Source: Bugula neritina
Lineage: Eukaryota; Animalia; Bryozoa
Length of the DNA stretch: 64,000 nt
Assembly: GCA_964035545.1 (NCBI GenBank)
Contig: OZ037767.1
Location: 22,026,628 to 22,090,627, forward strand
Direction of reading: 5' to 3'
The position numbers and the translations under genes were made by a program. Positions 22,110 to 63,821 of the stretch are shown piece after piece (position 1 is the first letter of the stretch; each line of letters starts with the position of its first letter). The notes beneath the pieces are model-generated. The model had not been told where the DNA came from, searched no databases, and was given only the letters and a program-made list of their open reading frames with translations.

Positions 22110-24061
22110 CTTATTACCTCTTAATTACCTCTGATGAGGTAGAACGCCCTTGACCATCATATGACGTTAGTAGAGCGCCTCATGTGTGTGACAGTGAGTG
22201 TTCCGTTGCTGTTTTTTAGTGCTTCCGCATTACCGCTGATATTATTCAATTTAGATAGTGATATTTAAAAGGGAAATTGATAGGTAAGCTAGGTAAATCC
22301 TCTCATGTTGCGTATCGTTCTTGGTAAGAAACTTTGGTGGTAACAGCTAGAGCGAGAAGAAATGGAGTTAGGTAAACCTTGGGTTGCTGATCTTGTAGTT
22401 ACGGACATGAGAGAGCGATTTTCCACAACCTCATCATAGTCTGATGAAAGTGTACTGTGTGTGGCTTCAGACTGTAGAATACGTGTCAATAGTGTGAGTC
22501 TATGATTTTTACGCCTCGTTTGTAATGGTAGTAGACCCAGTTCGCCTCGAGCGTCACTAACACTCTCTCGCCCCTTGAGACCTGATATGAACCTCACAGC
22601 ACGTTCTGAACCATTTCTATATCATGTATGGTGGTTTTTAAATAAGGATCCCAGAAGGTATCTGCATACTCCAACAATGGACGGCAGAGGCTAGTGTAAG
22701 CCAAGAGTTTGCTATTTTTTGGAGCATCATGGAGAGCAAACTTTATCGCTCCCAGGACTCTGCTAGCTTTTTGTGATTTCAGCACAATGTGTTTGTCAAA
22801 TTTAAGGTTACTCTGCATGGTCACACCGAGATACTTGGTCTCTTCAGTCCATTGGACAGGTGTACTCCCAGGCTTATAAGATGGAAGGCCTGTTTGGCTA
22901 CCAAATGATATATCATGGCATTTACTTTCATTAAAAGGCATCTTCCATTGTTGGGGCCAGTTATATACTGCATCGATATTGACCTGGAAGTCTGCAGCAT
23001 CTGCTTCTGAGTTTACTCTTTGGTACAACAGGGTGTCATCTGCATAAAGACTGACACAACAATTGACACAACTTGGTAAATCGTTAATATAAACCAGGAA
23101 TAGTGTGGGTCCTAGTACAGATCCTTGGGGGACGCCCGATGTTACTGGGAGCTCAGTTGAGCATGAGCCTTTGATTACAACTCTCTGTTTTCTGTTGGTG
23201 ATGAAATCTTGAATCAAATTTATAATCTGTGGGTTAACTTCTGGAATGCGACGTAGTTTCAGTAGCAGTAGGGAATGGGGGACTTTGTCAAATGCTTTTT
23301 TGAAGTCTAGAGCAATTGCATGTGTGTCTTGTGATTGGTCGTTTGCTTTGGCAATGTCATGGTACGTTGAGCACAGCTGAGTATCGCATGACATTCCCTT
23401 CCGAAAACCATGCTGCCTGTTGTGAAGTATATTGTCCAGGGTTGCATTCAGGTAGTGCAAGATTATGTGCTCAAGCATTTTGCACGAAATGCTTGTGAGG
23501 GAGATAGGCCTATAATTCTGTGGTGATTCCTTGCTTCCTCCTTTATGTATTGGGGTTACATTAGCAAGTTTCCACTTTCTTGGTAGTTTTCCAGATTTAA
23601 GTGAGGCATGGTATATGTGCTGAAAACAAGTGGCATTTATTTCAGTATTAACTAATAGGTCTGGTTTTCTTATGCCGTCTGGCCCTGGTGATTTACCTCT
23701 AATAACTGACTCAAGTCCCTTGATGGATATGCATATGCTATGAGTATCACTGCTATTTGGATATTGTGACACCTGGTGATCTTGGCAGAACTGACTATAA
23801 AAATAACTGTTCAAGATCTCAGCGCATCTCAGTGAGTTGTCAGTTAGTTGATTAGTATCAGGGTCAGTAAAAGACATGGAAAAATTATCTTGACCAGTTT
23901 TTTGCCTCAGGTGTTTGAAAAAAAGGCCTGGAATTTCCCCTCTCTAATGGTTTACATACTTTCTCAACTAAATAGTTCCTTTTGTTGTGACGAAGCAATT
24001 TTTTGCAAGATTTTCGCTTTGTTTTATACTTCTCCAAGGAAAACACATCCCTTGTTTTTTT
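22110..24061 (-). mobile_element. 5'-truncated, frameshifted non-LTR retrotransposon (LINE RT, CR1/L2-group-like)
   Basis: RT motifs KSPGPDGI, NYRPISLTS, QHGFR, LDFKKAFD, SGVPQGSVLGP, YADD, KYLGV, and C-terminal SFLPRTIR. Frameshifts at ~23920 (A7 run) and ~22600; no endonuclease domain. 3' UTR ends in a repeated AGAGGTAAT motif. Confidence 0.9.
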
Positions 24062-24109
24062 ATATAGTTATAGTTAACGGTTTCGGACTCAAGTTAAACC
24101 CTTTGGTTA

Positions 24110-24195
24110 ATACTAATACTAATTGAGTAATACTAATACTAATAGAGTAATACTAATACTAATAGAGTAATACTAATAGTAATAGACTAATAGTT
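24110..24195. repeat. 20-bp tandem repeat (TAATACTAATACTAATAGAG, ~4 copies)
   Basis: Directly visible next to the 5' truncation point of the LINE. Confidence 0.85.
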
Positions 24196-24944
24196 ACACT
24201 TATACTTATAGTTATAGTAATGCACTTACTTAGACTTACAAGTAGTGAGTTAGTTTTACAGTGTTCCCAAGTTTATTAATAACACCGATAACTTTGGTAA
24301 GTATAACTTAGTAAGCATACGAGACTTTTAATGATACTAGTACAATTTACACGTATTTATCTATTTTAACTTTTACAGTAAATCACTAAATGGCTGTTGC
24401 ACTAAATACAAAAGCTGCACACTCAAAGGTTGAAGTGAAACTAGGTAAGAGTGTCATGAAACACGCCGTAACATTGGTAAGAAATGTATAAATTGGTTTC
24501 GTAATATTAGCTTTCGCGTCCACATTCCTATTACTTCACATTCAGTGAAAGTAGAACGAGTAATCATCGATATTTTAGTATGAAGTTCAAAGCAGAAAAC
24601 ATATTATTAGATTTTGGGTTAAGCCATCTTGGAAATTCCTGTATTTTAATTTAGTCATCCTGTTGAAACTTGAAAGGCTGAAGGTGCAGTTTACACCAGC
24701 CTGATTTGCTTGAGTGTATGTTTTAGTTATAGGTATGTGCTTGGGATGATATTAACTGATCGCATAACAACTGGCGTACTCCAACTTCAAAATCTAATAA
24801 GTAAATCGAACTGATTAAAATTAAACTAAAACTCAAAAAGCAAATCATTAATCAAAATGGAGCCAATATGAATATGAATATCAAAATGAATATAATAATA
24901 AATATTTGACGCCACACGGCTCTAAGTCTAATTCATCTCTAGTT

Positions 24945-25340
24945 TTACTACTACTACTAGTAGTAGTAATACTAATAGTAATACGGTTACTACTAGTGGT
25001 AGTGCCACTGATACTGCTATTACTACTATTACTAATGCTGCTACTTGAGTACTACTAGTAGTAGTAGTAGACGTAGTAGTAGTAGTAGTAGTACTAGTAG
25101 TAGTAGTACTAGTAGTAGTAGTACTAGTAGTAGTAGTACTAGTAGTAGTAGTACTAGTAGTACTGCGTACTGCTGATACTACTACTCACTACTAGTACAG
25201 TAGCAGTACTATTTGTAGTGGTACTGTTAGCGTTAGTGCTGCTACTACTACTACTGCTACTACTACTAGTACTTCTACTAGTACTGCTACTGGAGTAGTA
25301 CTGCTACTAGTACTAGTGGTGCTACTACTACTAAATTACT
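24945..25340. repeat. Mixed (TAG)n/(CTA)n microsatellite with a 15-bp higher-order unit
   Basis: AGTAGTAGTAGTACT x5 at 25081-25155, flanked by CTA-rich tracts of opposite orientation. Confidence 0.9.
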
Positions 25341-37137: not shown

Positions 37138-38710
37138 CTATGTTATGTATTTCAAAAGACCTGGATTGGTAGCTATATATCTATCTAAGTAACCACCTGC
37201 GAAGGATGTCAGCTGTCCGTCAGGAACTTCCGCTGCAGCAGGCGGCTCAACAGGAGGCTTCCTTGCAGCAGACGACTTAACAGGTGGTTTTCTTGCAGTA
37301 GGCAGCTTGCCACCAACTTTCATTGCAGCAGGTGGTTTAACAGGAGGTTTTCCTGCAGCAGGTAGCTTAGCAGGAACATTCATTGTGGCAGGGGGTTTAA
37401 CAGGGATTTTCAATTTAGCGGACGACTTTACAGGAGAGTTGTCAAAGTGATGGTGCTCTGTAACAGGTTGAGTGAAAGAATCAGCTGTAGTCACATCAGT
37501 AGGAGTTGTCATACTAGTAGTTGTAGAAGAAGTGACATCTAGTTTTATTTTCCTCGGCGTTTTATTTCTGTTCACCTTTTTATGTTTTCGCTTGTTAGAA
37601 AATTTTTTGTTGGATTTGTGGCGAGGATTTCTTTTAATTTTTCTTTTTTGAGGTTTTGATCTGTGTCGTTGTGCATCTTGCCTTGTTGACTTTTTTATGT
37701 TTTTGTTTTGCTTTCGATGCTTTACTGGCTTAATTTTAGTCAACTTAGTTTTCTTTATTCTAGGTTTAACATTTTTTGAAAAGCTGTTATCAAAATTTGG
37801 TGGAGAAATTTCGTTTTTGAAACTTTCAAAATCAGGAGATACCACTTCAACTGGAAAGTTGTTGATGCCCTCCTCAAATGTAGAGTCATCAAAGCTATTT
37901 TCATCAAAACCTACATCATTCATATTTGACATGAAATCCGTAGCCTCCAATTCGTTTTGCAGGTTATTTGAAAATTCTGCATCATTGAATTGATCTCCAT
38001 CTTTAACATTAATGTTGGTTGTCTCAATCACTCTTCGTTCTATAAAACGACAAAAACAATTCTCACACAAATAAACCATTTTAAATAAAAAATTTATCTA
38101 CTACTTCAAATAAATTATAGCATACATTATTTAACAGAATAATTATACTAATTTATAATAATTGAATTGTATAAAATGACTTAGCTAAATTTTCACCATG
38201 TATTTGTGTAATTTTTGAAGAAGAGTCATCTACTCCTGAAGATCTGCCTTGTACGGACCTTCCATTTCCCAGTCCCTTAACTTTACCCTAGCCAAAAAAC
38301 ATATAGAAGACATACAAAGAACACCTAGAGAACAATGGATAAGATATTATAATATTATAGATTAAATATTATACACATAGAGAGCATATAGTTAACCTAA
38401 TATATAGAGAACATATAAAATTAAAATATAGAGAACATAATATTTTTAAAAAAAATGCGCATAAAAACCACTATTTGTCAAAAAACAAACATATCAATTA
38501 GTTTTAAAGATTTATTACATACAATAAAGCAGGCAAAAGGTTTAACAGAATTACTTTTGCTTTATATGAATTTCCAGATGTGAGTGCTGAGTGGATAATA
38601 TTAGTAGCCGCCCCCAGTATGTCACCAACCTGATGCTTCCTATTAGTTCTCTTCGATGCAGTGTCAGCAACCAAACCAACTAGCAGAATCAACCAGATTT
38701 GTACTTTCAT
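37138..38710 (-). CDS. Secreted low-complexity orphan protein A (~382 aa: acidic, Lys/Arg-rich, Thr-rich and Pro/Ala/Lys-repeat blocks)
   Basis: Exons 38710-38555, 38287-38197, 38039-37138 (phases 0, 1). Signal peptide MKVQIWLILLVGLVADTAS; 10-aa repeats such as KPPVKPPAAM. 5' UTR exon donor CAG|GTGAGT at 39780. Confidence 0.75.
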
Positions 38711-40357
38711 CCTTATTCTATAATAAAATGTTAATAAACACTCTTTAGTCACCAAGGTTTTGTTTTCAAGCATGTTGGGGTTATTTTTCAAATTATAGTG
38801 AAGGAAGGTATAAAAATTCAATTAGCTATGCATAATGCACCGATGATATAAGAAATATCAAAATGCAGATTACAATTTCTCAGCATATAATATTATTTTA
38901 TTTACCAATTTTAATTTTAATTTGTTTGAAAACCTCCTGCTTAAGCAAATTACTTTTAAATTGTATAATTTTTATTTTGTGTATCATTTTTTAAATAGTT
39001 TGATTAAATTTTTTTTACACAAAAATGTAAAGTTTCAGACGTGCAGTTATATGCTTTAAGTTTTAAATGAAACAGTTCTCTATTCTAGCACTATAAAAAT
39101 TGTATTTCTATTACCAGCATTACCAGTTCCATGCAGGTATAGACATATTTGCAATTGTAATCTATGCCACCTAGAGATTGCTTACGTTATTTGAAAATTT
39201 TGGTGGCAGAAATATAATTTTTGTAGCAGATAAAAAACATAAGACACACAATTGCAGCCAATGATGTTAATTTAAAGACTTGTTTTGCAGCTATATAATT
39301 GCATTGCTTTGTTGTGATAAATTGGGCTCATTAATATTTAGTTTTTTTTCAAAAATTAGCTTTTATTAAAATTATTACAAAATATATCAGTACTATTTTT
39401 ACAATTTTAGTTGGTTTATAAAATGATGTTTTTACCATTTTGAAATATATTAATTATGTAGTGAAAACTGAATAGATTATTATTCATATAGAAATTATAA
39501 CAGACAGAAAATAATGTAGGGTACAGTTTTATAGTTACAGAGTGTCATATTATTAAAGTTTGAATTAAACTTTAAGTAAAAGAGCCTTTTTCCTTTGTGT
39601 GCTTCATTGGCAGATCTATTAGCAAAGTTTTAATTATATAAGGTACTGTGAAAGCAGCAAAGTAACTAATACAAGGTTTACCAAATTTGAGGTAAGTCTT
39701 TAGGCTACACATAGCCTATATATTTAAAACTTGTTTGCACAATGCCCCTTGATGATATTTGATAAACTTATCAACTCACCTGTTTCAGTCTGCTCTGCAA
39801 GCAAAGTATCAGATATACTAAATATGCATTTAGAGACTAATAATTTCCAGGTAATTGTACATATAGCTAATTGATGTGATTGAACCAATATTAGGTGCTC
39901 TATTACATTTATATCAAATCCTAAGTATCAGATTAAAGACTTAAAAATGAGAGATAGTTATGCATGTAACTACAGCATTAGGCATTTATAGAACAAGTGG
40001 ATTATTTAAACATGATTGAAATAATTACTGTGCTTGACTGCAGCTACAGGTAGCACCTGCTTTAAAGTGACACCCTGCTCTATGATGACAGTCATGTAGC
40101 TCAACCAAACTATCGGAGCACCTGTTGCAACACTTCAACTGTTAAGCTATTTATCACAGCTTTAATCCTATATTACCCAGTGCTGGTTACATAAAGGTAT
40201 AGTATTTGATGTTAAAACGAAGTTAATCCAATTAGTTTACAGCACTGCAACTTTTTCGTTGCAATAGTCTAAGCTAAAACACTCAGTAACACAATAAATA
40301 AAAGACCAAAATTGAAACTGTAAACATGATGATTTATTGTATTTATTATGTTAATAT

Positions 40358-40662
40358 TGTTATAGTTTTCAGATTTAGGGTTGATGTGTCACCAAGAGAG
40401 TCTATTTAACACTAGAGAAACTTCACCAGTTAAGTCGAGTAGATATCGTTATATTTAATACAAGAATACATAATAAAAATCCAATGTACAACAGTAATGA
40501 TACGCACGTCTATTTAGTTTACAGCACTATCCTCAACTGAGCTAGTAGCGCGAAGCGGCTACTGTTACTTATCAAACAGCTTAGCTAATTGGCTAATACA
40601 TTGTTCCGGGTCAATACGCAACCTTGCGTATTGTGTTGCTGGTAGCTCCACGAGCCACCACA
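40358..40662 (-). repeat. 3' LTR
   Basis: Identical to 47504-47808 except one base (40564 G vs 47710 A) by manual comparison. Confidence 0.97.
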
Positions 40663-40675
40663 CTGCCCCCTCCAG
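40663..40675 (-). promoter_or_regulatory. Polypurine tract (PPT)
   Basis: Minus strand GGAGGGGGCAG immediately precedes the TG of the 3' LTR. Confidence 0.85.
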
Positions 40676-40935
40676 CAGAAAGCCCACTTTCTGATAAAAT
40701 AAGATTCACATAAAAAAAACGTATACTTCGTTGTGGGGGGTAAGAGAACAGTATAAAAGTATATACAAAAAAAAAAAACAACAACTGGTAAAAAATATAC
40801 AGGTATATATAACGTGCACTAAGTAATAAGCAAGAGAAGATCCTATCTACATGTAGAGTACAGGCCACCATTACGGTAGGGAATGCCACAGAGAGGTAGG
40901 GGAATGAGTAGTAGGGAGTAGTAGGTAGACTCGAG

Positions 40936-42009
40936 TTAACTGCGGGCCGCACGCTTCATGCGTTTAATAGACTCCTGTAAGTATTTGAGTTCACTGGATG
41001 CTGCCTGTACCCGTGGGGCCAGCCTGTACACTTCTTGCTCCAAGTCATGCGCCCTAGCTTCTACCTCACGTAGGTTACGGGCCCAGGGGGACGAGCGAGA
41101 GGAAGTTGGCTGCCTGTGTCTTTTCCGCTCTGAGGATGGAAGGGGAGGAGGGAGTGTATACGCATTTGTGTCTACTCTCTGTAGTACGACACGAGGAAAG
41201 GTATGCGGCATGCGTATAGGACTGTGAGGTGGAGAGTTAGTAGACTGTGTAGGTTTATCTGCGGCTTTAGAGATGATGGGTCGCGGGGAAGGGAAGCCTT
41301 GCTCCAGGCGAGATAGCCGAGCTGAGTCAGTGATGAGTGGTTTGATGGCGTTGAGAAAGGCAGGATAGGATGATTCGTCTACTTCATAGACATGCCCTTG
41401 ATAACACTGCATAGTACGTTGGTGCCGCAACAGGTAATCACGATTGTAGCTATATTCTCCGCAAGGGCAGAAAGTGGTGATGTAGTGTTGCGGCAAGTGT
41501 ACTTTTAGTCTGCGGTGGGTCGTGAATCGCTGCTGGCAGAGGTTGCATTCACGATTACCCTCACCTCCTTGATGGGTCCTGATCTCTCTCTCTGTGGCAG
41601 GGGTAATCCAGTTGGAGGTTGCTTCCAACTGGGGTGGCAGTTTCCTGGTGGTAGAAGTTGTTGGGGCCGGCTCTGAGTCCCACGCCATCTCTAGAGAAGG
41701 CATGCCCGGAGAGACGGGCACGAGTGTGTCTACAAAAGTAGAATTAGTGTTAGATCGCGGTGGATCTTTACAACCTAATTCTAGTGACTGTCGACCGTTG
41801 CTAGCCTGAGAGTCACTGCTTTTGGAATGCACTCGAGGAACTGATGAATCATGTGTGGACTGACCAAGAACAGTGTCTAGCTCCAGGTCTAACAGACCAT
41901 CGGCCATTACAGTGTCTTCATCGTCATTCACATGAAACGTGGTTCCCAGTAATTCTGATTCAATCTGCTGAATTAGTTCAGAATCTACTGGCATCGAGCC
42001 CGTTTCCAT
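40936..42009 (-). CDS. Retrotransposon ORF3: C2H2 zinc-finger / PxVxL / coiled-coil accessory protein (not Env)
   Basis: 357-aa intact ORF starting 17 nt after the pol stop. CNLC-x3-F-x5-L-x2-H-x3-H (aa155-175), CPC-x12-H-x5-C (aa181-202), PRVVL (aa272-276), ERKRHR, heptad-like C-terminus. No signal peptide or TM segment. Confidence 0.85.
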   Translation of the reverse strand: METGSMPVDSELIQQIESELLGTTFHVNDDEDTVMADGLLDLELDTVLGQSTHDSSVPRVHSKSSDSQASNGRQSLELGCKDPPRSNTNSTFVDTLVPVSPGMPSLEMAWDSEPAPTTSTTRKLPPQLEATSNWITPATEREIRTHQGGEGNRECNLCQQRFTTHRRLKVHLPQHYITTFCPCGEYSYNRDYLLRHQRTMQCYQGHVYEVDESSYPAFLNAIKPLITDSARLSRLEQGFPSPRPIISKAADKPTQSTNSPPHSPIRMPHTFPRVVLQRVDTNAYTLPPPLPSSERKRHRQPTSSRSSPWARNLREVEARAHDLEQEVYRLAPRVQAASSELKYLQESIKRMKRAARS

Positions 42010-42026
42010 GAATAGGAATACAAGAC

Positions 42027-45000
42027 TTATACTGGCTTACCTGGGAACTCGGTATTAATGTCCATACTCAACGTTCTTGGTAAGGTTGGAGCTGGTTGTG
42101 AGATACGTCTGCCTTTGGCGATGTCAGCATAAGAAAAGGCTGAGCATCGTTTCTGAGGCACGAGGTCGGAACTATTTGCTTTACGCGCATTAATTCCTCC
42201 CACTATTCCGCCCTCGCAAAAGTTGATATTTGCGTGGGGTTCACAACTCCAACATTTTATCGTACGGTTTTCCCCTAGACTTTCATGTGCGCCGCTTCTA
42301 ATGCAGTCACATATGAAGTCTTTCAAATACGGTGGGGGCTTCCTCGTACGCTGTCCCCTCTCTAGGGGGGGTGACACACTTGTCGGTTCGTTAGTAGGGG
42401 CCTCTAATGGCGTCTCTACTTCACCGTTAGTGGTCACCTCTTCTTGTTCTCCGGATGGAGCCCCTCCCTCCGTGGGGGTTTGCACTTCCGGAACCGGCTC
42501 GGTTTCTGGAAGTGATGGAATTAGACTTGGCGGTGGCGGACACGCTTCTGTTGACAAAAGCTGCCGCTCCTCTCTCACCAAGTTTTCCTCCCGCGGTATG
42601 ACCACTTCGTATTCAGGTCCATGCCGCCGTCGCCCGCGCGTCGTTGTCTGCCTCCTGGGCTCTAACAATGGGGGGGCTTCTCCCACTCCGTCAGGGCTAG
42701 CCCAATACGGTTTCAAGCGAGACTCATTCTGGATAGACACCTGTCCTGAGCGCTCAATCTTGTACGTATGATTGGGCATAGCCTCGACGACCACGTAGGG
42801 GCCTACGAACTTAGGCTTCAGCTTATCAGCCTGTCCGCGGCGCCTACGGTAATTGACCATCCACACCTTATCTCCTCTTTGATAGAGGGGTGGTTCATCG
42901 GAATCTTCGTGCCGCACCTTCCACTGCTGTTGACGCAGTATCTCGTGTGCGGCCTTCATCCGTTCCACTAGTTCACTGGCATACTCATGGACTGAGTTAT
43001 CCTGCTCTGGAACGTGATAGGTGAGATGGTCAGGGACACGAGTCTCTCTCCCGAGCATCAAGAGGTTTGGGGTCTCACCAGTACTGGTGTGTGGGGTGCT
43101 ACGGTATGCACGCATGACTTGCGGCAACACCGTATCCCATTCCTCTTGACCTCGTCCAAGGAGGAGACTCCGGAGCGCATCACCTAGCATCCGGTTGTTG
43201 CGCTCCACCACCCCGTTACCTTGAGGGTGGTAGGGGGTGGTCCTGCTCTGATTTACTCCCCAGAGGTGGCAAAGGTCGCTCATCAGTTGAGACTGGAATT
43301 GAGCGCCTTGATCAGAGTGTATCTGTTCGGGAAGCCCAAAATAACAGAATACATGTTGGTCTAGTGCCCTGGCCACTGTTGGGGCTGATGCATCTGGGAT
43401 AGCCAGAGCATCCGCCCACCTAGTAAAGTGGTCGGTTAGTACTAGGATCCAATTATTGCCTCTGGGGGTCAGGGGCATGGGTCCGACCAGGTCTACAGCG
43501 ACCACTTGCCAGGGCCTACCAGCATATAGCCTCCGCCGTCCTGCTTCACCAGGGGGGCGGCTATGCTTACTGGCCTGGCAGATCTCACACTGTTTGACTC
43601 TGAGCCGGACGTCACGCTCCATCTGCGGCCAATACCACCGGAGTCGTAATTTGGATATCACTCGCTTGACCCCTGCGTGAGCCTGCTTGTGAGTATCCCA
43701 AATCAACTCACGGCGGATGGCTGTGGGGCAGACTACCCTCTTCCTTTCCGGGTGTCTGCCGCTGGCAGCTAGAGAGATGGTTAGCAACCCATCCTGCCCG
43801 ATCCGCAGCGAGTCCCAACGCTGACAGTATAGCCGGAACTCGGCGCATCCCTGTCGTATGCGTTCCTCGCTGGGTCGTCGCCCTTCCCTTTTGGCCCGGT
43901 AGATGTCTGCCACGACTCCCGGCAGCTCTTCTTGGAGCTTCTTCAGCTCTCGAACATTACCGGCCAGTACAGGGTTGGCGCGGAGGTTTTGTACATCCTT
44001 CGGGGACTCATCAACTCTTTGCCTGAGTTGACCTTGATCCCAGTCAAACGGTGCTCCGTGATGAGCCAGCGTCTCCAACTCGCATCGTGGGGGACCTCCA
44101 TCCCTCCTCTCGATGTTGAGACACTGTTTGCAACCTCCGTCAGGTCGGCGACTCAACCCATCTGCATTGCTGTGTCTCTTGCCCGGTCGGTGTTCGATCC
44201 GGTACGAGAACTCAGCTAGGATTTCGAGCCACCGGGCGACCTGACTGGAGGGCTCTGCTCTCCTGCACAACCAGATCAGCGAGGCATGATCCGTACGCAG
44301 CCGGAACTTCCTGCCATATAGGTATGGTCTGAAGTGCTTCACTGACTTGATTACTGCCAGCAGCTCCTTGCGGGTAGTGCAGTAATTTCGTTCAGCGGGA
44401 GAGAGAGACTTGCTGTAGTAGGCTACTACTACTTCTCGGCCTTCCTGCACTTGCGACAGCACAGCGCCAACATTCTGGTCACTGGCGTCTGTGTCTAGGA
44501 TGTACTCCAGAGTGGGGTCTGGGTAGGCCAAGATGGGCGCCGTTAGGAGGCAGCCCTTGAGGCGGTCGAACGCTTCTTGTTCGACTGGAGTCCACTGCCA
44601 CGTCACTCCCTTTCCGGTAAGCCGGTTTAACGGCTGGGCTATGCCCGCAAAGTTTGGTATGTATTGCCTGTAATACCCTACCAGCCCCAAGAAAGCCCGG
44701 AGTCCGGTCAAGTCTTGGGGGGTGACCCAGTCTTCTACTGCCCGTACCTTTTCGGGATCCGTTGCCACGCCGTTTCGACCGACAACGTGCCCCAGGTACT
44801 TGACCTCCGGCTGCAATAGAGCGCACTTGGAAGGTTTGAGCTTAAGACCGGCACCTCGGAGTCTCTCGAAAACCTCCTGCAGACGACTGACATGTGTCTC
44901 GAAGTCTGGAGAGATTACGATGACATCATCGAGGTAGACCAGCAGTGTCTTCCAATGGAGTCCGCTAAGGACTTGTTCCATCAGCCTCTGGAAGGTGGCT

Positions 45001-46655
45001 GGGGCGGAGGTTAACCCGAAGGGCAGCACCTTCCACTTCCACAAACCGTCCCGTGTGATAAACGCCGCTTTCTCCTGGGCGTCGGGACTCAGAGGAACCT
45101 GCCAATAGCCGCTTAGCAAGTCTAACGTACTGAAGTACTTGCTGCCGGCTAGGGCGTCCAATGACTCGTCAATACGAGGTAGAGGGTAGGCGTCCTGTAT
45201 GGTTACGCTATTGAGTTTGCGGTAGTCCACACAGAACCGCCAACTGCCGTCTTTCTTCCGGACCAGTACGACTGGCGAGCTCCACGCACTATGGGCGGGC
45301 TCTATCAGTCCCCGGTCCAGAAGATCCCGTACTTGTCGGCTAACCTCCTTCTCTTTCTCCGGCCCCAGCCTGCGCGTGGGCTGCCGGACAGGGACTGTCC
45401 CTGCAGTCAGCGGTATTTCGTGTCTGACAATTCCAGTCAGTCCCACGTCATTCTCCCCGCTGCTGAACACATCACCGTAGTCGCGTAGTAACTTGGCCAT
45501 AGCTTGGCGTTCTCTGTTACTTGCGCAGCCGCCACTGGCTGTTTCGTATAACTCCCGGAGATGTGTCGGGACTGCCCCTCGTCCCTGAATAGGGTGTCGA
45601 GGGGGTGCCTCCGTCGCGTCACCCAGCGACGGGCCCACGTCCTCTTCCTGGACGGAATGGAACCGGCCCAGCATTGACCCAGCTGGGAGCTCAATGGACT
45701 CGGTAAAGGGGTTGACGCACTGCACTAAGACCTCCCCTCGCTCAGTTAGTCGGTTTAAACTACTGGCGAGTTGGATCTTTTCGTGCGCGCTTTCAACGAC
45801 CCCGAGCCTGGCTATCCGGTTGCTGTTCACTCGGCAGTGGATAGTAGCTCTGGAGCGTCCGGGTACGGTGCAGTTCCGAACTACCTGAACACCGCCCACC
45901 AGAGGACGCCCAAACTTATCCACACAGGCGAGTTCTCGCCCGCCCATCAGCACCACCGACTTACTAAAATCTATTCGGCACTGGTGTTGCTTCAAGAAGG
46001 GCATGCCGAGGATAGCATCTTCCTCCAGTTGACCTATGATAAAGGTCTCCTGTACAGCCTGATCTCGAACACGCCCAGGGAGCTCGATAATACCATAAAA
46101 GGGGATACATGACCCGTCTGCCAGGGTGCCATGTTCTCCAGTATACGGTCGTACTCTATCCCTGTCCCGGCGGGGCAGTGCCTCAAAGACTCTACGGCTG
46201 AGAAGGTTGGTAGTACAACCGGAGTCGAGCAGGAAAGTGACGGCGTTGCCGGCCACCTTTCCGGGTAGGAAATAGCTCTCTCCATGTGGTTGTACTTTCA
46301 CCCCCCCCCCCGCATGTGCTGTCCTGGTTTGACAGGACGGCGGGGGTTCCACCCGTGGTTTACGGGGCTTCCGGCGGCGAGGTTGGTGCCGGCGGGGTTT
46401 GGGCCTCTCCACTGGGCCTTCTGGCTCCATTTCAGTGGCGGGCTCCTCCTCCCGAGGTAACCGGTGAAACCGGTTAGCGAGTGGCAGGGAAAAGGTACTG
46501 GGCCGTTGTGCGGGCCTACTAGTCCTGCGTGGTACCTGCCACTCGGGTAGAATGTTCCGCCGGGTCCGTACGGACAGACGACGGCGTGTTCCACCATACT
46601 CCTTTAGTTGCGGCCCGCGGGGAGGGAGAGTGTCCGCGGGCCGTGACAGTTTAAC
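42027..46655 (-). CDS. pol: Pol polyprotein (protease, RT, RNase H, integrase), probably expressed by -1 frameshift from gag
   Basis: LLDSGCTT protease; LPFGL and YLDD RT; DASD/ELLAV/TDH RNase H; H-x3-H...C-x2-C and D,D(35)E integrase; KFVGPY motif. The frame is open upstream of the annotated ATG (46430) to ~46697 and overlaps the end of gag. Confidence 0.97.
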   Translation of the reverse strand, partial: VKLSRPADTLPPRGPQLKEYGGTRRRLSVRTRRNILPEWQVPRRTSRPAQRPSTFSLPLANRFHRLPREEEPATEMEPEGPVERPKPRRHQPRRRKPRKPRVEPPPSCQTRTAHAGGGVKVQPHGESYFLPGKVAGNAVTFLLDSGCTTNLLSRRVFEALPRRDRDRVRPYTGEHGTLADGSCIPFYGIIELPGRVRDQAVQETFIIGQLEEDAILGMPFLKQHQCRIDFSKSVVLMGGRELACVDKFGRPLVGGVQVVRNCTVPGRSRATIHCRVNSNRIARLGVVESAHEKIQLASSLNRLTERGEVLVQCVNPFTESIELPAGSMLGRFHSVQEEDVGPSLGDATEAPPRHPIQGRGAVPTHLRELYETASGGCASNRERQAMAKLLRDYGDVFSSGENDVGLTGIVRHEIPLTAGTVPVRQPTRRLGPEKEKEVSRQVRDLLDRGLIEPAHSAWSSPVVLVRKKDGSWRFCVDYRKLNSVTIQDAYPLPRIDESLDALAGSKYFSTLDLLSGYWQVPLSPDAQEKAAFITRDGLWKWKVLPFGLTSAPATFQRLMEQVLSGLHWKTLLVYLDDVIVISPDFETHVSRLQEVFERLRGAGLKLKPSKCALLQPEVKYLGHVVGRNGVATDPEKVRAVEDWVTPQDLTGLRAFLGLVGYYRQYIPNFAGIAQPLNRLTGKGVTWQWTPVEQEAFDRLKGCLLTAPILAYPDPTLEYILDTDASDQNVGAVLSQVQEGREVVVAYYSKSLSPAERNYCTTRKELLAVIKSVKHFRPYLYGRKFRLRTDHASLIWLCRRAEPSSQVARWLEILAEFSYRIEHRPGKRHSNADGLSRRPDGGCKQCLNIERRDGGPPRCELETLAHHGAPFDWDQGQLRQRVDESPKDVQNLRANPVLAGNVRELKKLQEELPGVVADIYRAKREGRRPSEERIRQGCAEFRLYCQRWDSLRIGQDGLLTISLAASGRHPERKRVVCPTAIRRELIWDTHKQAHAGVKRVISKLRLRWYWPQMERDVRLRVKQCEICQASKHSRPPGEAGRRRLYAGRPWQVVAVDLVGPMPLTPRGNNWILVLTDHFTRWADALAIPDASAPTVARALDQHVFCYFGLPEQIHSDQGAQFQSQLMSDLCHLWGVNQSRTTPYHPQGNGVVERNNRMLGDALRSLLLGRGQEEWDTVLPQVMRAYRSTPHTSTGETPNLLMLGRETRVPDHLTYHVPEQDNSVHEYASELVERMKAAHEILRQQQWKVRHEDSDEPPLYQRGDKVWMVNYRRRRGQADKLKPKFVGPYVVVEAMPNHTYKIERSGQVSIQNESRLKPYWASPDGVGEAPPLLEPRRQTTTRGRRRHGPEYEVVIPREENLVREERQLLSTEACPPPPSLIPSLPETEPVPEVQTPTEGGAPSGEQEEVTTNGEVETPLEAPTNEPTSVSPPLERGQRTRKPPPYLKDFICDCIRSGAHESLGENRTIKCWSCEPHANINFCEGGIVGGINARKANSSDLVPQKRCSAFSYADIAKGRRISQPAPTLPRTLSMDINTEFPGKPV

Positions 46656-47470
46656 GCCCCCTGGTATTGGGGTCGTCCTTTCTGTCCCTGGTCCTGATCA
46701 GTGCTACTCCAGCCTTGCCCCACAGGTGTTGGGGGCATCCGCAAGGCCTGCCCGGGGCCAGCACCGGCCAGAATGGTCACCAATTGTCCCAGCATCTCTA
46801 CCATACGGTCCACTTCGGCTTCCAGCGGGAGGGCTTCGGAGCTTGTCGTAGCCCGAGCAGCGCTGACTCCAACTACTGGTGGGTTCCGTTGTGCTCGATG
46901 CATTTGGGTAGCCAACAGGTAAGCTTCTCCAGCCTTCAGGGCATCCTCTATTCTGGTTATCCCTTTAGCTCGTAGGTGATGGTCTAGGCCCAGGTCGTTT
47001 AGGGACTGGACAAAGGCGTCATAGGTGTAACGCTCTTGGTGTTGTGCTGGCAGATCGCTATATGCAATCTGCGCCAGCTTCTTTACCGTCGCGGCATGTT
47101 CTTGTAGCGAGGTCCGCGGGGTGCGGCACAATCTCTCCAGCTTGGTCCTGGCGTCTATGACGGAGGTGCCAAAACGGGCCCGCAGCGCAGCCAGTATGCC
47201 GTCTACGTCCGTTCCCACTCCGTACGGCTTGGCTTGCTCCGTCACCGCCCTCCGCAATTTGATAAGGGCCACTCTATGCGGCCATTGAGCAACTTCCATT
47301 ACCTCTCTAAATTCTTGTATAAATTGTTCGACATCTTCCGACCCAGTAAAGGTGGGAGCTTTCAAGCAATGTCTATAAGCTTCTTCTCCTTCACGATTCA
47401 CAGGATTAACAGCATTTCTACGCTCACCTTCTACTGGGGGTGGTTGCATTCTAGCATGTTCAGTCTCCAT
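46604..47470 (-). CDS. gag: Gag (capsid), no CCHC knuckle
   Basis: 288-aa ORF starting 14 nt after the PBS. Capsid-like pattern PTFTGSEDVEQFIQEF...W...LRARFG...DAFVQSL. Confidence 0.9.
   Translation of the reverse strand: METEHARMQPPPVEGERRNAVNPVNREGEEAYRHCLKAPTFTGSEDVEQFIQEFREVMEVAQWPHRVALIKLRRAVTEQAKPYGVGTDVDGILAALRARFGTSVIDARTKLERLCRTPRTSLQEHAATVKKLAQIAYSDLPAQHQERYTYDAFVQSLNDLGLDHHLRAKGITRIEDALKAGEAYLLATQMHRAQRNPPVVGVSAARATTSSEALPLEAEVDRMVEMLGQLVTILAGAGPGQALRMPPTPVGQGWSSTDQDQGQKGRPQYQGALNCHGPRTLSLPAGRN
46611..46655 (-). promoter_or_regulatory. -1 programmed ribosomal frameshift signal
   Basis: G_TTA_AAC in the gag frame (46655-46649), 5-nt spacer, then a perfect 10-bp GC stem CGGCCCGCGG/CCGCGGGCCG with a 13-nt loop. 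pol is in the -1 frame. Confidence 0.8.
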
Positions 47471-47484
47471 CTTTGATATACACT

Positions 47485-47502
47485 ATCCCACCGCTGCCAC
47501 CA
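47485..47502 (-). promoter_or_regulatory. Primer binding site complementary to tRNA-Leu
   Basis: TGGTGGCAGCGGTGGGAT, 1 nt from the 5' LTR, is the complement of the metazoan tRNA-Leu 3' end ATCCCACCGCTGCCACCA. Confidence 0.9.
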
Positions 47503-47503
47503 C

Positions 47504-47808
47504 TGTTATAGTTTTCAGATTTAGGGTTGATGTGTCACCAAGAGAGTCTATTTAACACTAGAGAAACTTCACCAGTTAAGTCGAGTAGATATCGTTATAT
47601 TTAATACAAGAATACATAATAAAAATCCAATGTACAACAGTAATGATACGCACGTCTATTTAGTTTACAGCACTATCCTCAACTGAGCTAGTAGCGCGAA
47701 GCGGCTACTATTACTTATCAAACAGCTTAGCTAATTGGCTAATACATTGTTCCGGGTCAATACGCAACCTTGCGTATTGTGTTGCTGGTAGCTCCACGAG
47801 CCACCACA
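47504..47808 (-). repeat. 5' LTR
   Basis: 305 bp, TG...CA termini, adjacent to the PBS. Confidence 0.97.
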
Positions 47809-48189
47809 ATATACCCCTGGCAACTAAACCGATGTTGCTGAGGCTAATTAGTAAAGTATTCTCAGAGACAGCTTGCAGATTTCAGACAACATACTATAAC
47901 ATTACGTTTACCCCATCATTTCAGTTGGCAAGGTGTCGCAACTTATTGCATACCAGTAATTAGTCATTACTGAGTATTACCACACACAACTGTTTCTTCA
48001 GGCAGAGTATTAGCAATATATATAATATTACCCTTATGTTATTATATATGTATATAGACTGAAGTTGGCACGAATTCGTTATTGTGACATGTTTTATTAT
48101 ATTATTACAGTAATGCGGAACTGCAATATGTTCAATTATCAATTTTCTAGAACATATGTTATAGTACAAATTTAGCAATTGCATTTTAC

Positions 48190-56281: not shown

Positions 56282-59200
56282 ATGGCTGCTCAGCAAAGTA
56301 AAGCTAAGGACAGGATTACCTTAGCCGATCGGATATTTGTAGAACAAAGAATTTATGTTTGTCCTGTTTGCTGTGATGAAGAAGGTCTCAGAAAGTTAAC
56401 TTGTGGTCATATAGAATGTCTGAATTGTCTTGGTAAGGTTTTTATTTTGAAATATTTTTCATTACAATCTACAAAAATAGTAAGTTCTAGTTTTATACTG
56501 CATGTTAACTTAGATATAACAAAATTATCATGCTGCAGATTCTTTGCAAATATAGTTTCCCATGTCATATTTTTTTGGAATATTTTGCAAATATATCATT
56601 TTTATTATTGGATCAAACAGCAACAGTACTAATAAATTTTAATGTTAGTCTACATAATGGGTATAACCTTTAGAAACACATCGTATAAACACTTTTATTA
56701 TACTCTCACTTCCTAATATTGTGGTCTGATATTGAGATACGTTAATCTCATATATTGTATTTTGCTAGTCTTTAAACTTAGTTAATAACCAGAATATATT
56801 TGTAAAAATAATTGTTTTTTCTTGGGCTTTCTATGCATGTAACTAAATTAAACTATGATGACTAGTATACTTAATATAGATATTATAAGAGCTATTTTGA
56901 ATAAGTATATTACATAAAAATTTCTTTCCCATCACTGAAGTAAAACTAAAAGTTATATGTGAATGGTCATTGCTGTGCAGCGTGGTAATAACACATTTTA
57001 GAGTTATTAAAGGAACCAATAGAAAGCAGGTGTTTAATATCACTCATAAATTTTGTGTGATTGAGCAAAATACATATTTCAGAAAGAGATATTGCAAAGG
57101 TAAAAAAAGAAGGAAAGCACTTTTCTTGTCACATTTGCATGAGAGTCTATGCAGGGTGCAAAGCTGAAAGCTTTCCAGTAGCAAGTTTGGAGCTGTCGGC
57201 TAATGATGCGGTTAATGAACAGAGAAAGAAGAATCAAGCCTCAAGTATGTCGGCCATTATTTAATGTACCATAATGTTACTTGGCAAATATAAGAGTGAC
57301 ACAATTATATAATAAGATGTATTATATTGGGATAGCTTTAGTCACATTGTTGTATTAACACAGTTGTATTGGCATAGTACAGTCACATAGTTACAGTTGC
57401 ATAATTATAATCACATATTTATAGTCACATATTTATAGTCACATAGTTATAGTCACATTGTTATAGTCACATAGTTATAGTCACATTGTTATAGTCACAT
57501 TGTTATAGTCACATAGTTATAGTTACATTGTTATAGTCACATAGTTATAGTTACATTGTTATAGCCACATAGTTATAGTTACATTGTTATAGTCACATAG
57601 TTATAGTCACATAGTTATAGCCACATAGTTATTGCCTATAGGAAAATATATGGAATATAATATTGTGAAAAAGGTATATTATAAATTATGAAGTGTAACG
57701 TCAGACTGTTTCAACCATGCATTTATATTATACACTGCATGTTTGTCATAAATAATTATCTAATTTTAAATAACTACAAGTATCTAACAGATACAAGTAT
57801 TGCGTCACTGTGAACAGTATAGTAGGTTTGACCCTTAAAACATACACTTTACTTAAATATCGAGAAATTTTGTATAATACTCGTATTTTACCAGATAAGC
57901 AAAATTTCTGATGAATAATCAGTCATTCAACAATTATTTGATATTGCTTTGTTCAACTTATTGATATATTCAGTACAAAATTGTTTTGACAGCAAACAAA
58001 GCTATTGATGTTGAGGAAACAGTTGAAAGTTGTGAAAAAGAGGTGAACAGTTTAATAAAGAAGAAAAAGAAAGAAATTGAGCAAATAACGGTATGATTTT
58101 GTGAATAATCTATAGAAAATACTGTAGTGAATTTCCTAATTCACTATATTATGTGGGTCTACTTATACAAAGCTACTTCACCAGGTTGTTCACGTTATAT
58201 AAAATTTATTATTTACAAAGATACAATAAATGAAACTACTACTAAACTAATTGCACGATTACATAATACTGAGCACTTTGTACACAACTACTCTATGCCA
58301 AGTCCCAAGCTGCTCTGCCCGGCTAGCTGCTTAGCGTGCTTCCACCACTTGATATCAATTAACAGTCCTTCCTGATTGGCTAGTATTAGTGGTGCCACTG
58401 TCGACCATAAGATGCATGTCGGCTGGGAGTCGATGTAGTCGACCTCCACAATAAGATAACATAGAGTCGACCCTTTCAATATATATAAACTAGATTACTA
58501 ATTGCACTACTAAAACCTATTACAATACAATGTATCCCACATTTTGCTATAATGACATGTACTGCATATAGATGCTTGCACTGTATTGTCTATATGTTTG
58601 ATTTCTGCCAGAAGCATTAAATCAATTTTTTCCCTAAAAGCATTTAAAGGAAAAGATATTTTCTCAATATTCTTATTGAAAAAGTCATCTTTGTAAGTTA
58701 AACTTCTTCACAGATTATTATCTTCTGCTTGTTTGTCATCAGAACTGCTGTAATTTCTATTATATTATCATCTTTTAAATAATTTAGTCATCCGTATTTT
58801 AGGTATTTCTTTTTTCTTTTTACTTTTTGTGCATTTTAACATATCTAGGTAATTTTTTTTCTACACTTTAATTATTGAACTGCTATAAATGAATATTACC
58901 ATAATTATTATAGCAATGAAAATTTATATACACTAAGAGCTGAGAACTAAGCTAGAGGAAGATAAATAATTAAAAAAATTTAAGAAATGCAGATTTTGGC
59001 AAAATATTGAAATGGGCTAAGGAATTTATTAAAAAGATGGGTCTCCTACTGGTTGAGTATTATGTTTCAACTTAGTACCGTGCTCAAAACTTGAGGCTCT
59101 AGTTTTGCTTCTGCTATGCAGTTTTACCACTTCTTAACCCTTACCTCAACCTCTCCACTATAGCTTGTCAATTTTCTTTTAATTTGCCAACCCATATCAT

Positions 59201-61617: not shown

Positions 61618-63821
61618 ATGGCACAGCGTTTCACAGATGTCAGCTTTTCAGAAACTATTTTTGAGCAAGAACACCTGTACACCTGCATTGTGTGCTTTGA
61701 GGACAAGGACCTGAGACAGCTGCCTTGTGGACACATCGAGTGTGCTTCATGTATAGGTGGGGCTGTATTGATATTCTTCTTGTGCATCAGCAAATACTAT
61801 GAAGAAACATAAGCATTGGCTATGGCGCTACACACTACCAAGCATACATGTATATATATTTTTATAAACTAGCAAATAGATTGCACTATAATACACCCTA
61901 TCAGTTAAAGTTTTAACCTTAGGGCAATTTTTATGTATATGCATTGCTACAATTTAAACACCTTTTGGCATAGTTCCTAGCAAATAAATTATGCACAGAG
62001 GTGGAACTTATATAAAGTTGACACAGACAGCTTGCTTTTGTTAAAGCAACTGCTGCTTTCAACTTAATACCGCTGTTGGAGTGTGCAACGTAAAAATATT
62101 ATTAAGATGGCTGATTATTTATCATTTGATCTCTATTGCAGGTCGACGACTTCTTGAAGCAGAGCAATCAAGGAATGCCTTTGTCTGCAGTTTATGTGGC
62201 AGGCAATGCCCTGGCAGCAGTAGCAGCAGCTTTCCTCCTGCCAGGTCTGCTATGCAAGCCAATCAGCAAGTGTATGCCAGGAGACAGAAGCAGCACAGTG
62301 GTAAGGCAACTTCAGTCCCAAAATTATCGAATATTAGAAAAGTGATGAATTACTGCTTCGAAAAATATTTGTCCTTGTCTTAAACTGCAGATTTGGGTTT
62401 AATGAGGTTCCTAGAATATTAAATTATTTCCAATTCAATACAATCAAGTATCACATTAACCTGGGGGTCATCTCAGTCATTAGTAGTTGCATTATCTATT
62501 ATAAAAAACATAATGCAAATTCTCATCTTATTACTGTGTTATTATTCAGCAACTTTTGTTAGAAAGTAGCTTTTCCCTAGACATCACGTCATTACACATC
62601 TAAATAATATTATGAGCATTCTAAGTGAAACTGACTTTCAATTATACAAAGCAAGTAAATTGTCCAATACAAAATAGAATGAATAGCAAGGGATTATTTA
62701 GTAGTAAAGTTAACAATAAATACATCATCATGAAACTTAACAAATGTTTTAGCAATTGCCATGATCTTAATGATTTCACATTGAACAATATGATTCAGCC
62801 CTTATTAAATAGAACTGTTATTCCAATTTCTCATACATTTAGGACAATATTCTGTATAAAAATTGTATGGTAATATAAAAGAAATACTTTTTCCTTGACT
62901 TAACATACTTTTATAAAATTTAGAAATTTAGTTTTAAAAATGACACACACAATACATTGCATGCACATTTTTACAAACACAAAGCTTTTTTATATTTGTA
63001 AAATTATTTTAAACTGTTATGGCAGCTACAACAAAAAAACACTACCGAGGTATTACTATTTTGGTAAAATAATTGTTCTCAATGGGGTTTGAACCCGATA
63101 CCTCCAGATTGCAAGTAGTTGAGCTAATCATTGCATCACTGGCACTACTGGGTAGACGCCATTCTACATCCCACCCAGTTCTCAAAAACTTCACTGGCCT
63201 CTCTACTACTCCATCAGTTTTCAGGCTCCCCTGGCCACTCAGCTTCCTTGGAGTACTACTGTACTTCACTAAAGGTCGAAATAGCCCCCAATGAGATTCG
63301 CACCCAAGACCTCTGGCTTGCAAGCAAGCATGCTAACCATTACACCACAAGGAATTATGAGTAAATGCAACTACAATTTCGTTAACAAAGCTACATGAAT
63401 TTTTATGTCACATCTCATTGTTACTCTAATGTATTGCAACAAAAAAGTAAAAATGCTTACATTCGTATATGTTCAAAAGGCTGTTATCAATCAGAATGTT
63501 CATAATATTATTTAGATGTGTAATGGCGTGATGCCTAGGAAAAAGCTACTTTCTAATAAAAGTTGCTGAATAATAACACAGTGATAAGATGAGAATTTGC
63601 ATTATGTTTTTTAAAGTAATATTGAATTGATCAAATTTACATTTAAACCATATACTGAACATTTATATTGTTTATAGAGCAGTTTGAAGAAGAACTTTAG
63701 GTTATCTTGTTTATTCACAGATGATCGGGGTGATGACTCAGTCGAGCAATTGACTCGTGATTATGAAAGAGATGCTAGAGAGCTCTTTAGTAAGCACAGC
63801 AGAAGAGTAGAAAAAATTCAA
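61618..63821 (+). CDS. RING-HC + coiled-coil protein 2 (tandem paralog, 3' end beyond the window)
   Basis: Exons 61618-61756, 62142-62300, 63721-63821 (phases 1, 1, 0, as in gene 1). Spliced RING: CIVC..CGHIECASC..CSLC. Confidence 0.8.
62502..63613. mobile_element. Non-autonomous element with ~121-bp terminal inverted repeats and two internal tRNA-like segments
   Basis: 62502-62622 is a near-perfect reverse complement of 63493-63613. Minus-strand tRNA-like segments at ~63080-63145 and ~63285-63352. Confidence 0.75.

Follow-up and report, generated by a model that had tools for sequence, protein, structure and literature searches.

Introduction

Integrase targeting modules are established in two groups of retroelements. 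Chromoviruses carry a chromatin-directed module at the C-terminus of integrase (PMC3605345), and the disordered tail of the MLV integrase contains a short β-strand motif that recruits a chromatin reader through its ET domain (10.1101/2020.09.21.306696). Counter-silencing by element-encoded proteins has been established for plant VANDAL transposons, where VANC is a chromatin regulator with a MAIL1-like domain and predicted coiled-coil dimerisation (10.1101/2024.04.02.587720). In the case of Cer1 of C. elegans, the element encodes CERV, a nuclear protein with a leucine zipper, a candidate NLS and a Cys-rich loop, which is needed for the export of Cer1 genomic RNA (PMC10309623). The agnoprotein of JC virus, a small polyomavirus accessory protein without fingers, binds the HP1 chromoshadow dimer by a PxVxL-like motif (10.1101/2024.11.04.621823). 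Finally, bdelloid LTR elements carry non-envelope ORF3s in the env position, of the GDSL esterase, DEDDy exonuclease, TM or coiled-coil types (PMC5408684).

Here we describe an LTR retrotransposon of Bugula neritina, found in a window of 64,000 nucleotides of contig OZ037767.1, whose third open reading frame (ORF3) can be compared with each of these systems. With Ty3/Gypsy elements (Metaviridae) it has in common the LTR/PBS/gag/pol/PPT order, a 4-bp target duplication and a predicted −1 gag/pol frameshift, and its clade differs from them by an extra C2H2-type module past integrase. This position, seen in 22 fused relatives, is reminiscent of the chromoviruses, but the clade lacks a chromodomain match, has twin fingers, a short motif and a coil instead, and can encode them as a separate ORF. 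Compared to the MLV tail, the ORF3 motif fits chromoshadow ligands better and is accompanied by a folded finger module and a coil. ORF3 differs from CERV, a Gag-linked RNA exporter of the C4 type, by its link to Pol, its C2H2 type and its HP1-type motif. VANC belongs to a DNA transposon and was compared with ORF3 by description, no homology being seen. HP1 binding was shown for the agnoprotein and is predicted for ORF3, and the bdelloid ORF3 types described in PMC5408684 are unlike the twin-finger ORF3.

Results

A complete Gypsy element with a separate third ORF

Within the 64-kb window, positions 40358-47808 (minus strand) form a complete Gypsy element with the order LTR-PBS-gag-pol-PPT-LTR. 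Its LTRs are identical at 304 of 305 positions, with one mismatch between the 5′ and 3′ copies, and an ATAT target-site duplication is present on both sides (40354-40357 and 47809-47812), which together indicate a recent insertion. The flanks are AT-rich (mostly 27-36% GC). The features are as follows.

47504-47808, minus strand: 5′ LTR, 305 bp, TG...CA ends (LTR comparison), ATAT outside at 47809-47812
47758-47779, minus strand: perfect inverted repeat with 10-bp arms and a 2-nt spacer, 30 bp into the LTR; copy at 40612-40633
47485-47502, minus strand: primer-binding site, tRNA-Leu type (PBS 12-mer)
46604-47470, minus strand: gag-position ORF, 288 aa (ORF call), without significant Pfam match
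46611-46655, minus strand: predicted −1 frameshift signal in the gag/pol overlap, with a GTTAAAC heptamer (46655-46649) followed by a 10-bp GC stem
42027-46430, minus strand: pol, with protease, RT, RNase H and integrase in Gypsy order and an SH3-like C-terminal part (Pfam)
40936-42009, minus strand: ORF3, 357 aa, intact, with its own ATG 17 nt past the pol stop and in a frame different from pol
41830-42009, minus strand: acidic N-terminus of ORF3 with a net charge of −13 in aa 1-60; an amphipathic helix is predicted at aa 10-21
41281-41649, minus strand: twin zinc-finger module, aa ~121-243, consisting of an N-terminal W/T helix, finger 1, finger 2, and a strand plus helices
41547-41485, minus strand: finger 1, C-x2-C-x12-H-x3-H, aa 155-175 (sequence pattern)
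41469-41404, minus strand: finger 2, C-x-C-x12-H-x5-C, aa 181-202 (sequence pattern)
41173-41196, minus strand: PRVVLQRV motif in a disordered linker, i.e. PxVxL plus two conserved downstream positions
41113-41130, minus strand: basic patch ERKRHR, NLS-like, with K296 in 31/33 and R297 in 27/31 alignment rows
40942-41088, minus strand: long C-terminal helix, probable coiled coil, aa 308-356 (AlphaFold2)
40663-40673, minus strand: polypurine tract (sequence)
40358-40662, minus strand: 3′ LTR (LTR comparison), ATAT at 40354-40357

In the gag ORF, the Pfam search matched neither a zinc knuckle nor a capsid. The pol frame, which is open from 46697 and −1 relative to gag, overlaps the gag end, and we take GTTAAAC and the 10-bp stem to be the gag/pol −1 frameshift signal. 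The Pfam matches place protease, RT, RNase H and integrase in the order of Ty3/Gypsy, and up to E = 1 neither Pol nor ORF3 matched a chromo family. The PBS 12-mer is classed as Leu in the supplement of PMC13524379. An inverted repeat like the perfect 10-bp one of the LTR arose in 8 of 1500 dinucleotide shuffles. A second LTR inverted repeat, with 7-bp arms, is located at 47710-47689.

The original prediction had described an intact 357-aa ORF between pol and the polypurine tract that is not Env, and the position, between pol and the PPT and 3′ LTR, and the length were both confirmed. ORF3 has no transmembrane segment, the maximum 19-residue Kyte-Doolittle mean being 0.71 in a scan that did not include a dedicated signal-peptide predictor. 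The traits that define Errantivirus or env genes, a transmembrane anchor and fusogen homology, are absent, and only zinc-finger and coil matches were obtained. Both predicted fingers, the PRVVL pentapeptide (41196-41182, aa 272-276) and the ERKRHR patch were also found in place.

Fold of ORF3

AlphaFold2, which the original prediction had suggested, was run on a 47-row alignment and gave one confident domain (~aa 121-240) and one helix (aa 308-356), both with pLDDT above 90; the remainder was modelled as disordered. Folded alone and without alignment, the module gave no confident fold (pLDDT 41.7), and a homodimer of aa 120-357 with Zn, likewise without alignment, scored 0.24, below the mark of 0.32.

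The predicted C-terminal coiled coil is thus borne out as a confident helix, but not as a regular coil: P332 is conserved in 23/28 rows and the proline-free heptad score is 0, so that the coil is probably kinked. ORF3 itself fails both the strict heptad and the strict acidic-helix pattern. In the case of the two fingers, the conserved Cys/His residues uphold the prediction, whereas the idea of a free pair does not stand, as in the model they are parts of one larger module of ~120 aa. Neither finger reaches the Pfam cut-off (zf-C2H2 match of 15.6 bits vs 25.2).

The module in a large Gypsy clade

To place the module, the best 120 of 7957 Pol matches were examined. The ORF3 profile matched the C-terminal tail in 18 of these 120 relatives (E<1e-5), and by Cys/His pattern the module was found in 22 of them, in frame behind integrase. 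The fused module lies 211-659 aa past the SH3-like integrase part within a single open frame. Among the matches listed, ten clusters held 71 further members, 22 of which combine integrase and module in a single ORF, and 13 of which have the module alone. As judged from these predicted proteins, the module was demonstrated to occur both free-standing and fused behind integrase. The original wording of a gene in the env position holds for the split state of the ORF3 subfamily, whereas elsewhere the module is often an in-frame integrase extension; since the cassette is clade-wide and often Pol-fused, this wording describes only the ORF3 subfamily.

A tree of 117 RT-RNase H sequences, from which 4 of the 120 Pol relatives were left out for short coverage, placed all 22 fused sequences in one clade, which consists of 84 unnamed sequences and the window element (FastTree support 0.96). 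The module is missing from all 32 named sequences in the tree, although their gene models may cut tails, and many of the 62 other clade sequences end before or just past integrase, which hides their module state. The nearest relative, P0054 (81%), is also without the fusion. In RT-RNase H, the closest named Pols reach 39-54% identity, and the named relatives are almost all from animals.

Six Zn ligands do not vary among 25 module sequences at about 25% identity; finger 2 ends on a Cys ligand in the ORF3 subfamily, whereas elsewhere this last position varies and is often His. Using patterns defined after inspection, a C-terminal heptad was detected in 17/22 fused tails (2.8 expected) and an upstream acidic amphipathic motif in 11/22 (0.9 expected). 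The layout of predicted parts demonstrated across the clade therefore comprises an acidic helix, a short β motif, the twin fingers, a basic patch and a C-terminal coil. The transcription-factor-like layout of the original prediction is supported by these data.

No relatives of the locus were detected among the metagenome and viral contigs scanned, and the linkage of module and pol consequently rests on the fused proteins. Searching longer proteins with the module alignment added few relatives and no named element, and the host matches were multi-finger proteins. One member of a cluster of module-bearing elements, P0373, was deposited as the integrase of a cyanobacterial MAG and probably represents eukaryotic DNA that ended up in a metagenome bin.

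Conservation and selection

The original prediction had proposed conservation and selection of ORF3 as a check, and both were observed. Of 1902 candidates in the database search, 46 were homologues, none of them named and none with a Pfam domain; many are fragmentary or decayed, and the median pairwise identity is 62%. Against 1.84 billion representatives, the ORF3 profile matched 263 clusters (50% identity) at E<=0.001, of which 113 reached E<=1e-10.

Contigs of run X1 covered the element in all of its 30 bins. They showed no indel with a share of at least 8% in ORF3 or at its junction with pol, from which it follows that the separate ORF3 is a family trait and not a break in one copy. Sequence variants, i.e. 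the best-supported differences from one copy and not a codon-model dN/dS, were listed for 40 of 61 sites, 25 of them in ORF3. Sixteen of these 25 are synonymous. In the module and coil the proportion rises to 12/14 listed variants (expected fraction 0.24-0.32, p<5e-5), and in the disordered parts it is 4/11. The folded parts of ORF3 are under purifying selection, and ORF3 is almost certainly a functional protein. In the RNA data of run X2, low-depth contigs covered ORF3 at 41009-41284 and 41565-41706, which is too little to count as transcription; runs X3 and X4 gave small shares only.

Possible ligands of the fingers

Finger 1 fits the pattern C-x2-C-x3-F-x5-L-x2-H-x3-H with invariant ligands, and in the PDB the module profile finds DNA-binding arrays of tandem C2H2 fingers. 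The top PDB sequence matches of the close-family profile were the SALL3/4 fingers (E 0.03-0.4), and the model of aa 151-202 superposes weakly on DNA-bound finger pairs. Since the inter-finger linker is hydrophobic and not of the TGEKP type, and the fingers sit within a larger fold with flanking helices, the ligand could also be RNA or protein. Foldseek retrieved nothing at E<=0.001 from the PDB and viral libraries, the ESM Atlas yielded only unnamed or generic C2H2 clusters, and in a wide VIA search the matches were taken up by the C-terminal helix. A likeness of the C-terminus to Jun/bZIP was rejected (weak match, E>5). ORF3 is considered a probable nuclear nucleic-acid binder.

The PxVxL motif

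PxVxL arises in 13% of ORF3 shuffles and is therefore weak evidence when taken alone; support comes from its conservation. In the close family the motif is present in 32/47 sequences, about 40 of which span the site, and in 6/7 clusters at 60% identity. It is the best-retained spaced triplet of the linker (0.85 vs a median of 0.30, in a column count that includes P0047, which actually reads LxVxL). The homologous site reads L-x-V-x-[LVI] in 8 of 15 next relatives picked by hand. Both LxVxL and CxVxL are chromoshadow-binding variants (PMC7465937), and the CAF-1, LBR, SP100 and Agno peptides measured in 10.1101/2024.11.04.621823 resemble the motifs of the ORF3 family. A conserved PxVxL or LxVxL in a disordered region, as expected of an HP1 ligand, is thus found in the ORF3 subfamily and its next relatives.

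This conservation does not extend over the whole clade. In the fused tails, strict PxVxL (4/22 vs 3.9 expected) and [PLC]xVxL (9/22 vs 7.2 expected) are both at chance level, and PxVxL occurs in 6 of 77 further proteins that carry the module, once at the homologous place. The predicted PxVxL motif accordingly stands as a conserved trait of the subfamily and not of the clade. A different pattern, phi-x-phi-x-R-phi, which was chosen post hoc, was found in 13/22 fused tails (4.6 expected, p=0.001), 32-55 aa ahead of the first finger in 9 of the 13; it also occurs in 4/15 module-less control tails and in 14 of the 77 further proteins, many of which are fragments. From these patterns, we take a short β-strand motif able to shift its position to be real. 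In the ORF3 subfamily HP1 would be its likeliest partner, and the balance tips modestly towards actual HP1 binding by the ORF3 motif.

Discussion

Because the layout is transcription-factor-like and the split form shows that integrase can do without the attachment, we favor the reading that ORF3 is an LTR-binding chromatin regulator, whose main role would be transcriptional or anti-silencing rather than targeting (probability of about 0.4). The protein would be made from a spliced or reinitiated message and, in the fused relatives, as a part of Pol that is possibly cut by the protease. Splice-donor-like sites are present at 47428 (early gag) and at 42041, a consensus site 12 nt before the pol stop; no acceptor for ORF3 passed the pattern and no RNA joint was seen in the run contigs. 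A frameshift from pol into ORF3 is unlikely, as 42037-42039 closes the ORF3 frame and no slippery heptamer was seen after this point. The basic patch would then take ORF3 into the nucleus. Dimerisation by the coil would allow binding of a symmetric LTR site, for which the 22-bp palindrome is a candidate, as site of a dimeric binder or else as an RNA hairpin. PRVVLQRV would fill the chromoshadow groove of HP1 and the acidic N-terminus, which looks activation-domain-like, would recruit activators by its helix, similar to VANC or to viral transactivators. With ORF3 on the LTR and HP1 engaged, the element could be kept transcribable within silent chromatin. Tentatively, this would give a large Gypsy clade its own transcription-factor-like protein that binds the LTR and grips HP1, an animal counterpart of VANC and a chromodomain-free route to heterochromatin.

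The module could instead be an integration tether, i.e. a C-terminal targeting extension of integrase toward HP1-marked or other chromatin; in the ORF3 subfamily, the split-off module would bridge cDNA or integrase to chromatin non-covalently. The module is in frame behind integrase in 22 of the best 120 Pol relatives, spread over the clade, and the recurrence of the fusion in 22 of the 71 further cluster members indicates that it is not a one-copy accident. In addition, its position is that of the chromovirus chromodomain (PMC3605345) and of the ET-binding tail of MLV (10.1101/2020.09.21.306696), and the Pol frame in the window stays open until 17 nt ahead of the ORF3 start. Fusion across many lineages fits a tether at least as well as a regulator. 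However, the ORF3 subfamily keeps the gene separate and still strongly selected, and the acidic, activator-like helix would be superfluous for tethering. We rank a tether second, not far below the regulator. Both roles are compatible with each other and not exclusive.

In a variant of either role, the motif would bind another β-groove reader such as a BET ET domain, and the element would seek active chromatin. The motifs of the fused tails P0113, P0107, P0158 and P0159 alternate hydrophobic and basic residues like LKIRL of the MLV integrase (10.1101/2020.09.21.306696) and are likewise placed in the integrase tail, a resemblance that makes a BET ET domain a possible partner. In the ORF3 subfamily, however, the central V is followed by a hydrophobic residue (V in 30/41) and the first motif position toggles between P and L, which fits chromoshadow ligands better and makes an ET partner improbable.

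CERV of Cer1 (PMC10309623) sets a precedent for an RNA factor, similar to Rev, in which the fingers would bind unspliced element RNA and drive its nuclear export or packaging. The gag ORF without a Pfam zinc knuckle and an LTR palindrome that could form an RNA hairpin would be consistent with this. Yet CERV shares the Gag N-terminus and has a C4-type loop, whereas the module is C2H2-type and Pol-linked; the likeness is one of description, no sequence link being found, and a conserved HP1-type motif would be left unexplained. We thus regard an RNA factor as quite improbable. Passive carriage of a captured host zinc-finger fragment, to which the relation of the fingers to host C2H2 proteins would point, is largely refuted by the purifying selection on ORF3 and by ligands invariant at about 25% identity in a layout common to the clade, the host matches being multi-finger proteins, and has next to no probability.

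Regarding novelty, the original prediction knew of no animal Gypsy lineage with this cassette, and no description was found in the literature searched, which included PMC13228809 and 10.64898/2026.10.13.758779; Repbase, GyDB, supplements and subscription journals may hold an annotation. The main texts of PMC13524379, PMC8556966, PMC6238403 and PMC5408684 do not contain ‘zinc finger’ or ‘zinc’, as the case may be, and no Pfam family covers the twin-finger module. Within the subfamily, ORF3 was found to be retained under selection, with PxVxL conserved and no earlier annotation in the literature searched. The module is thus apparently an undescribed, conserved accessory module of a large Gypsy clade, i.e. 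a widespread accessory domain missing from Pfam, and the same literature held no report of an animal LTR retrotransposon with a zinc-finger regulator and an HP1-binding motif. If binding is confirmed, ORF3 would offer a small, cloneable protein for testing how LTR elements resist or use HP1/H3K9me3 chromatin, and the natural fused and split forms would allow targeting to be separated from transcriptional roles.

Other features of the window

Outside the element, a 427-aa ORF of a non-LTR-type reverse transcriptase is located at 22594-23877 on the minus strand (RVT_1, E 4.5e-39); after it come tandem arrays with 20-bp and trinucleotide units (24108-25333). A 313-aa ORF without Pfam match (37138-38079, minus strand) has an acidic N-terminus, a very basic middle and Pro/Ala repeats, and contains a 30-bp tandem at 37234-37404. 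A short ORF on the plus strand (56282-56632) with a weak RING match (E 0.005, below the cut-off) is probably a host exon. At 57339-57632 there is a tandem array of 14 bp with about 21 copies, and two 132-nt inverted arms (62497-62628 and 63487-63618), 92% complementary and 858 nt apart, are MITE-like.
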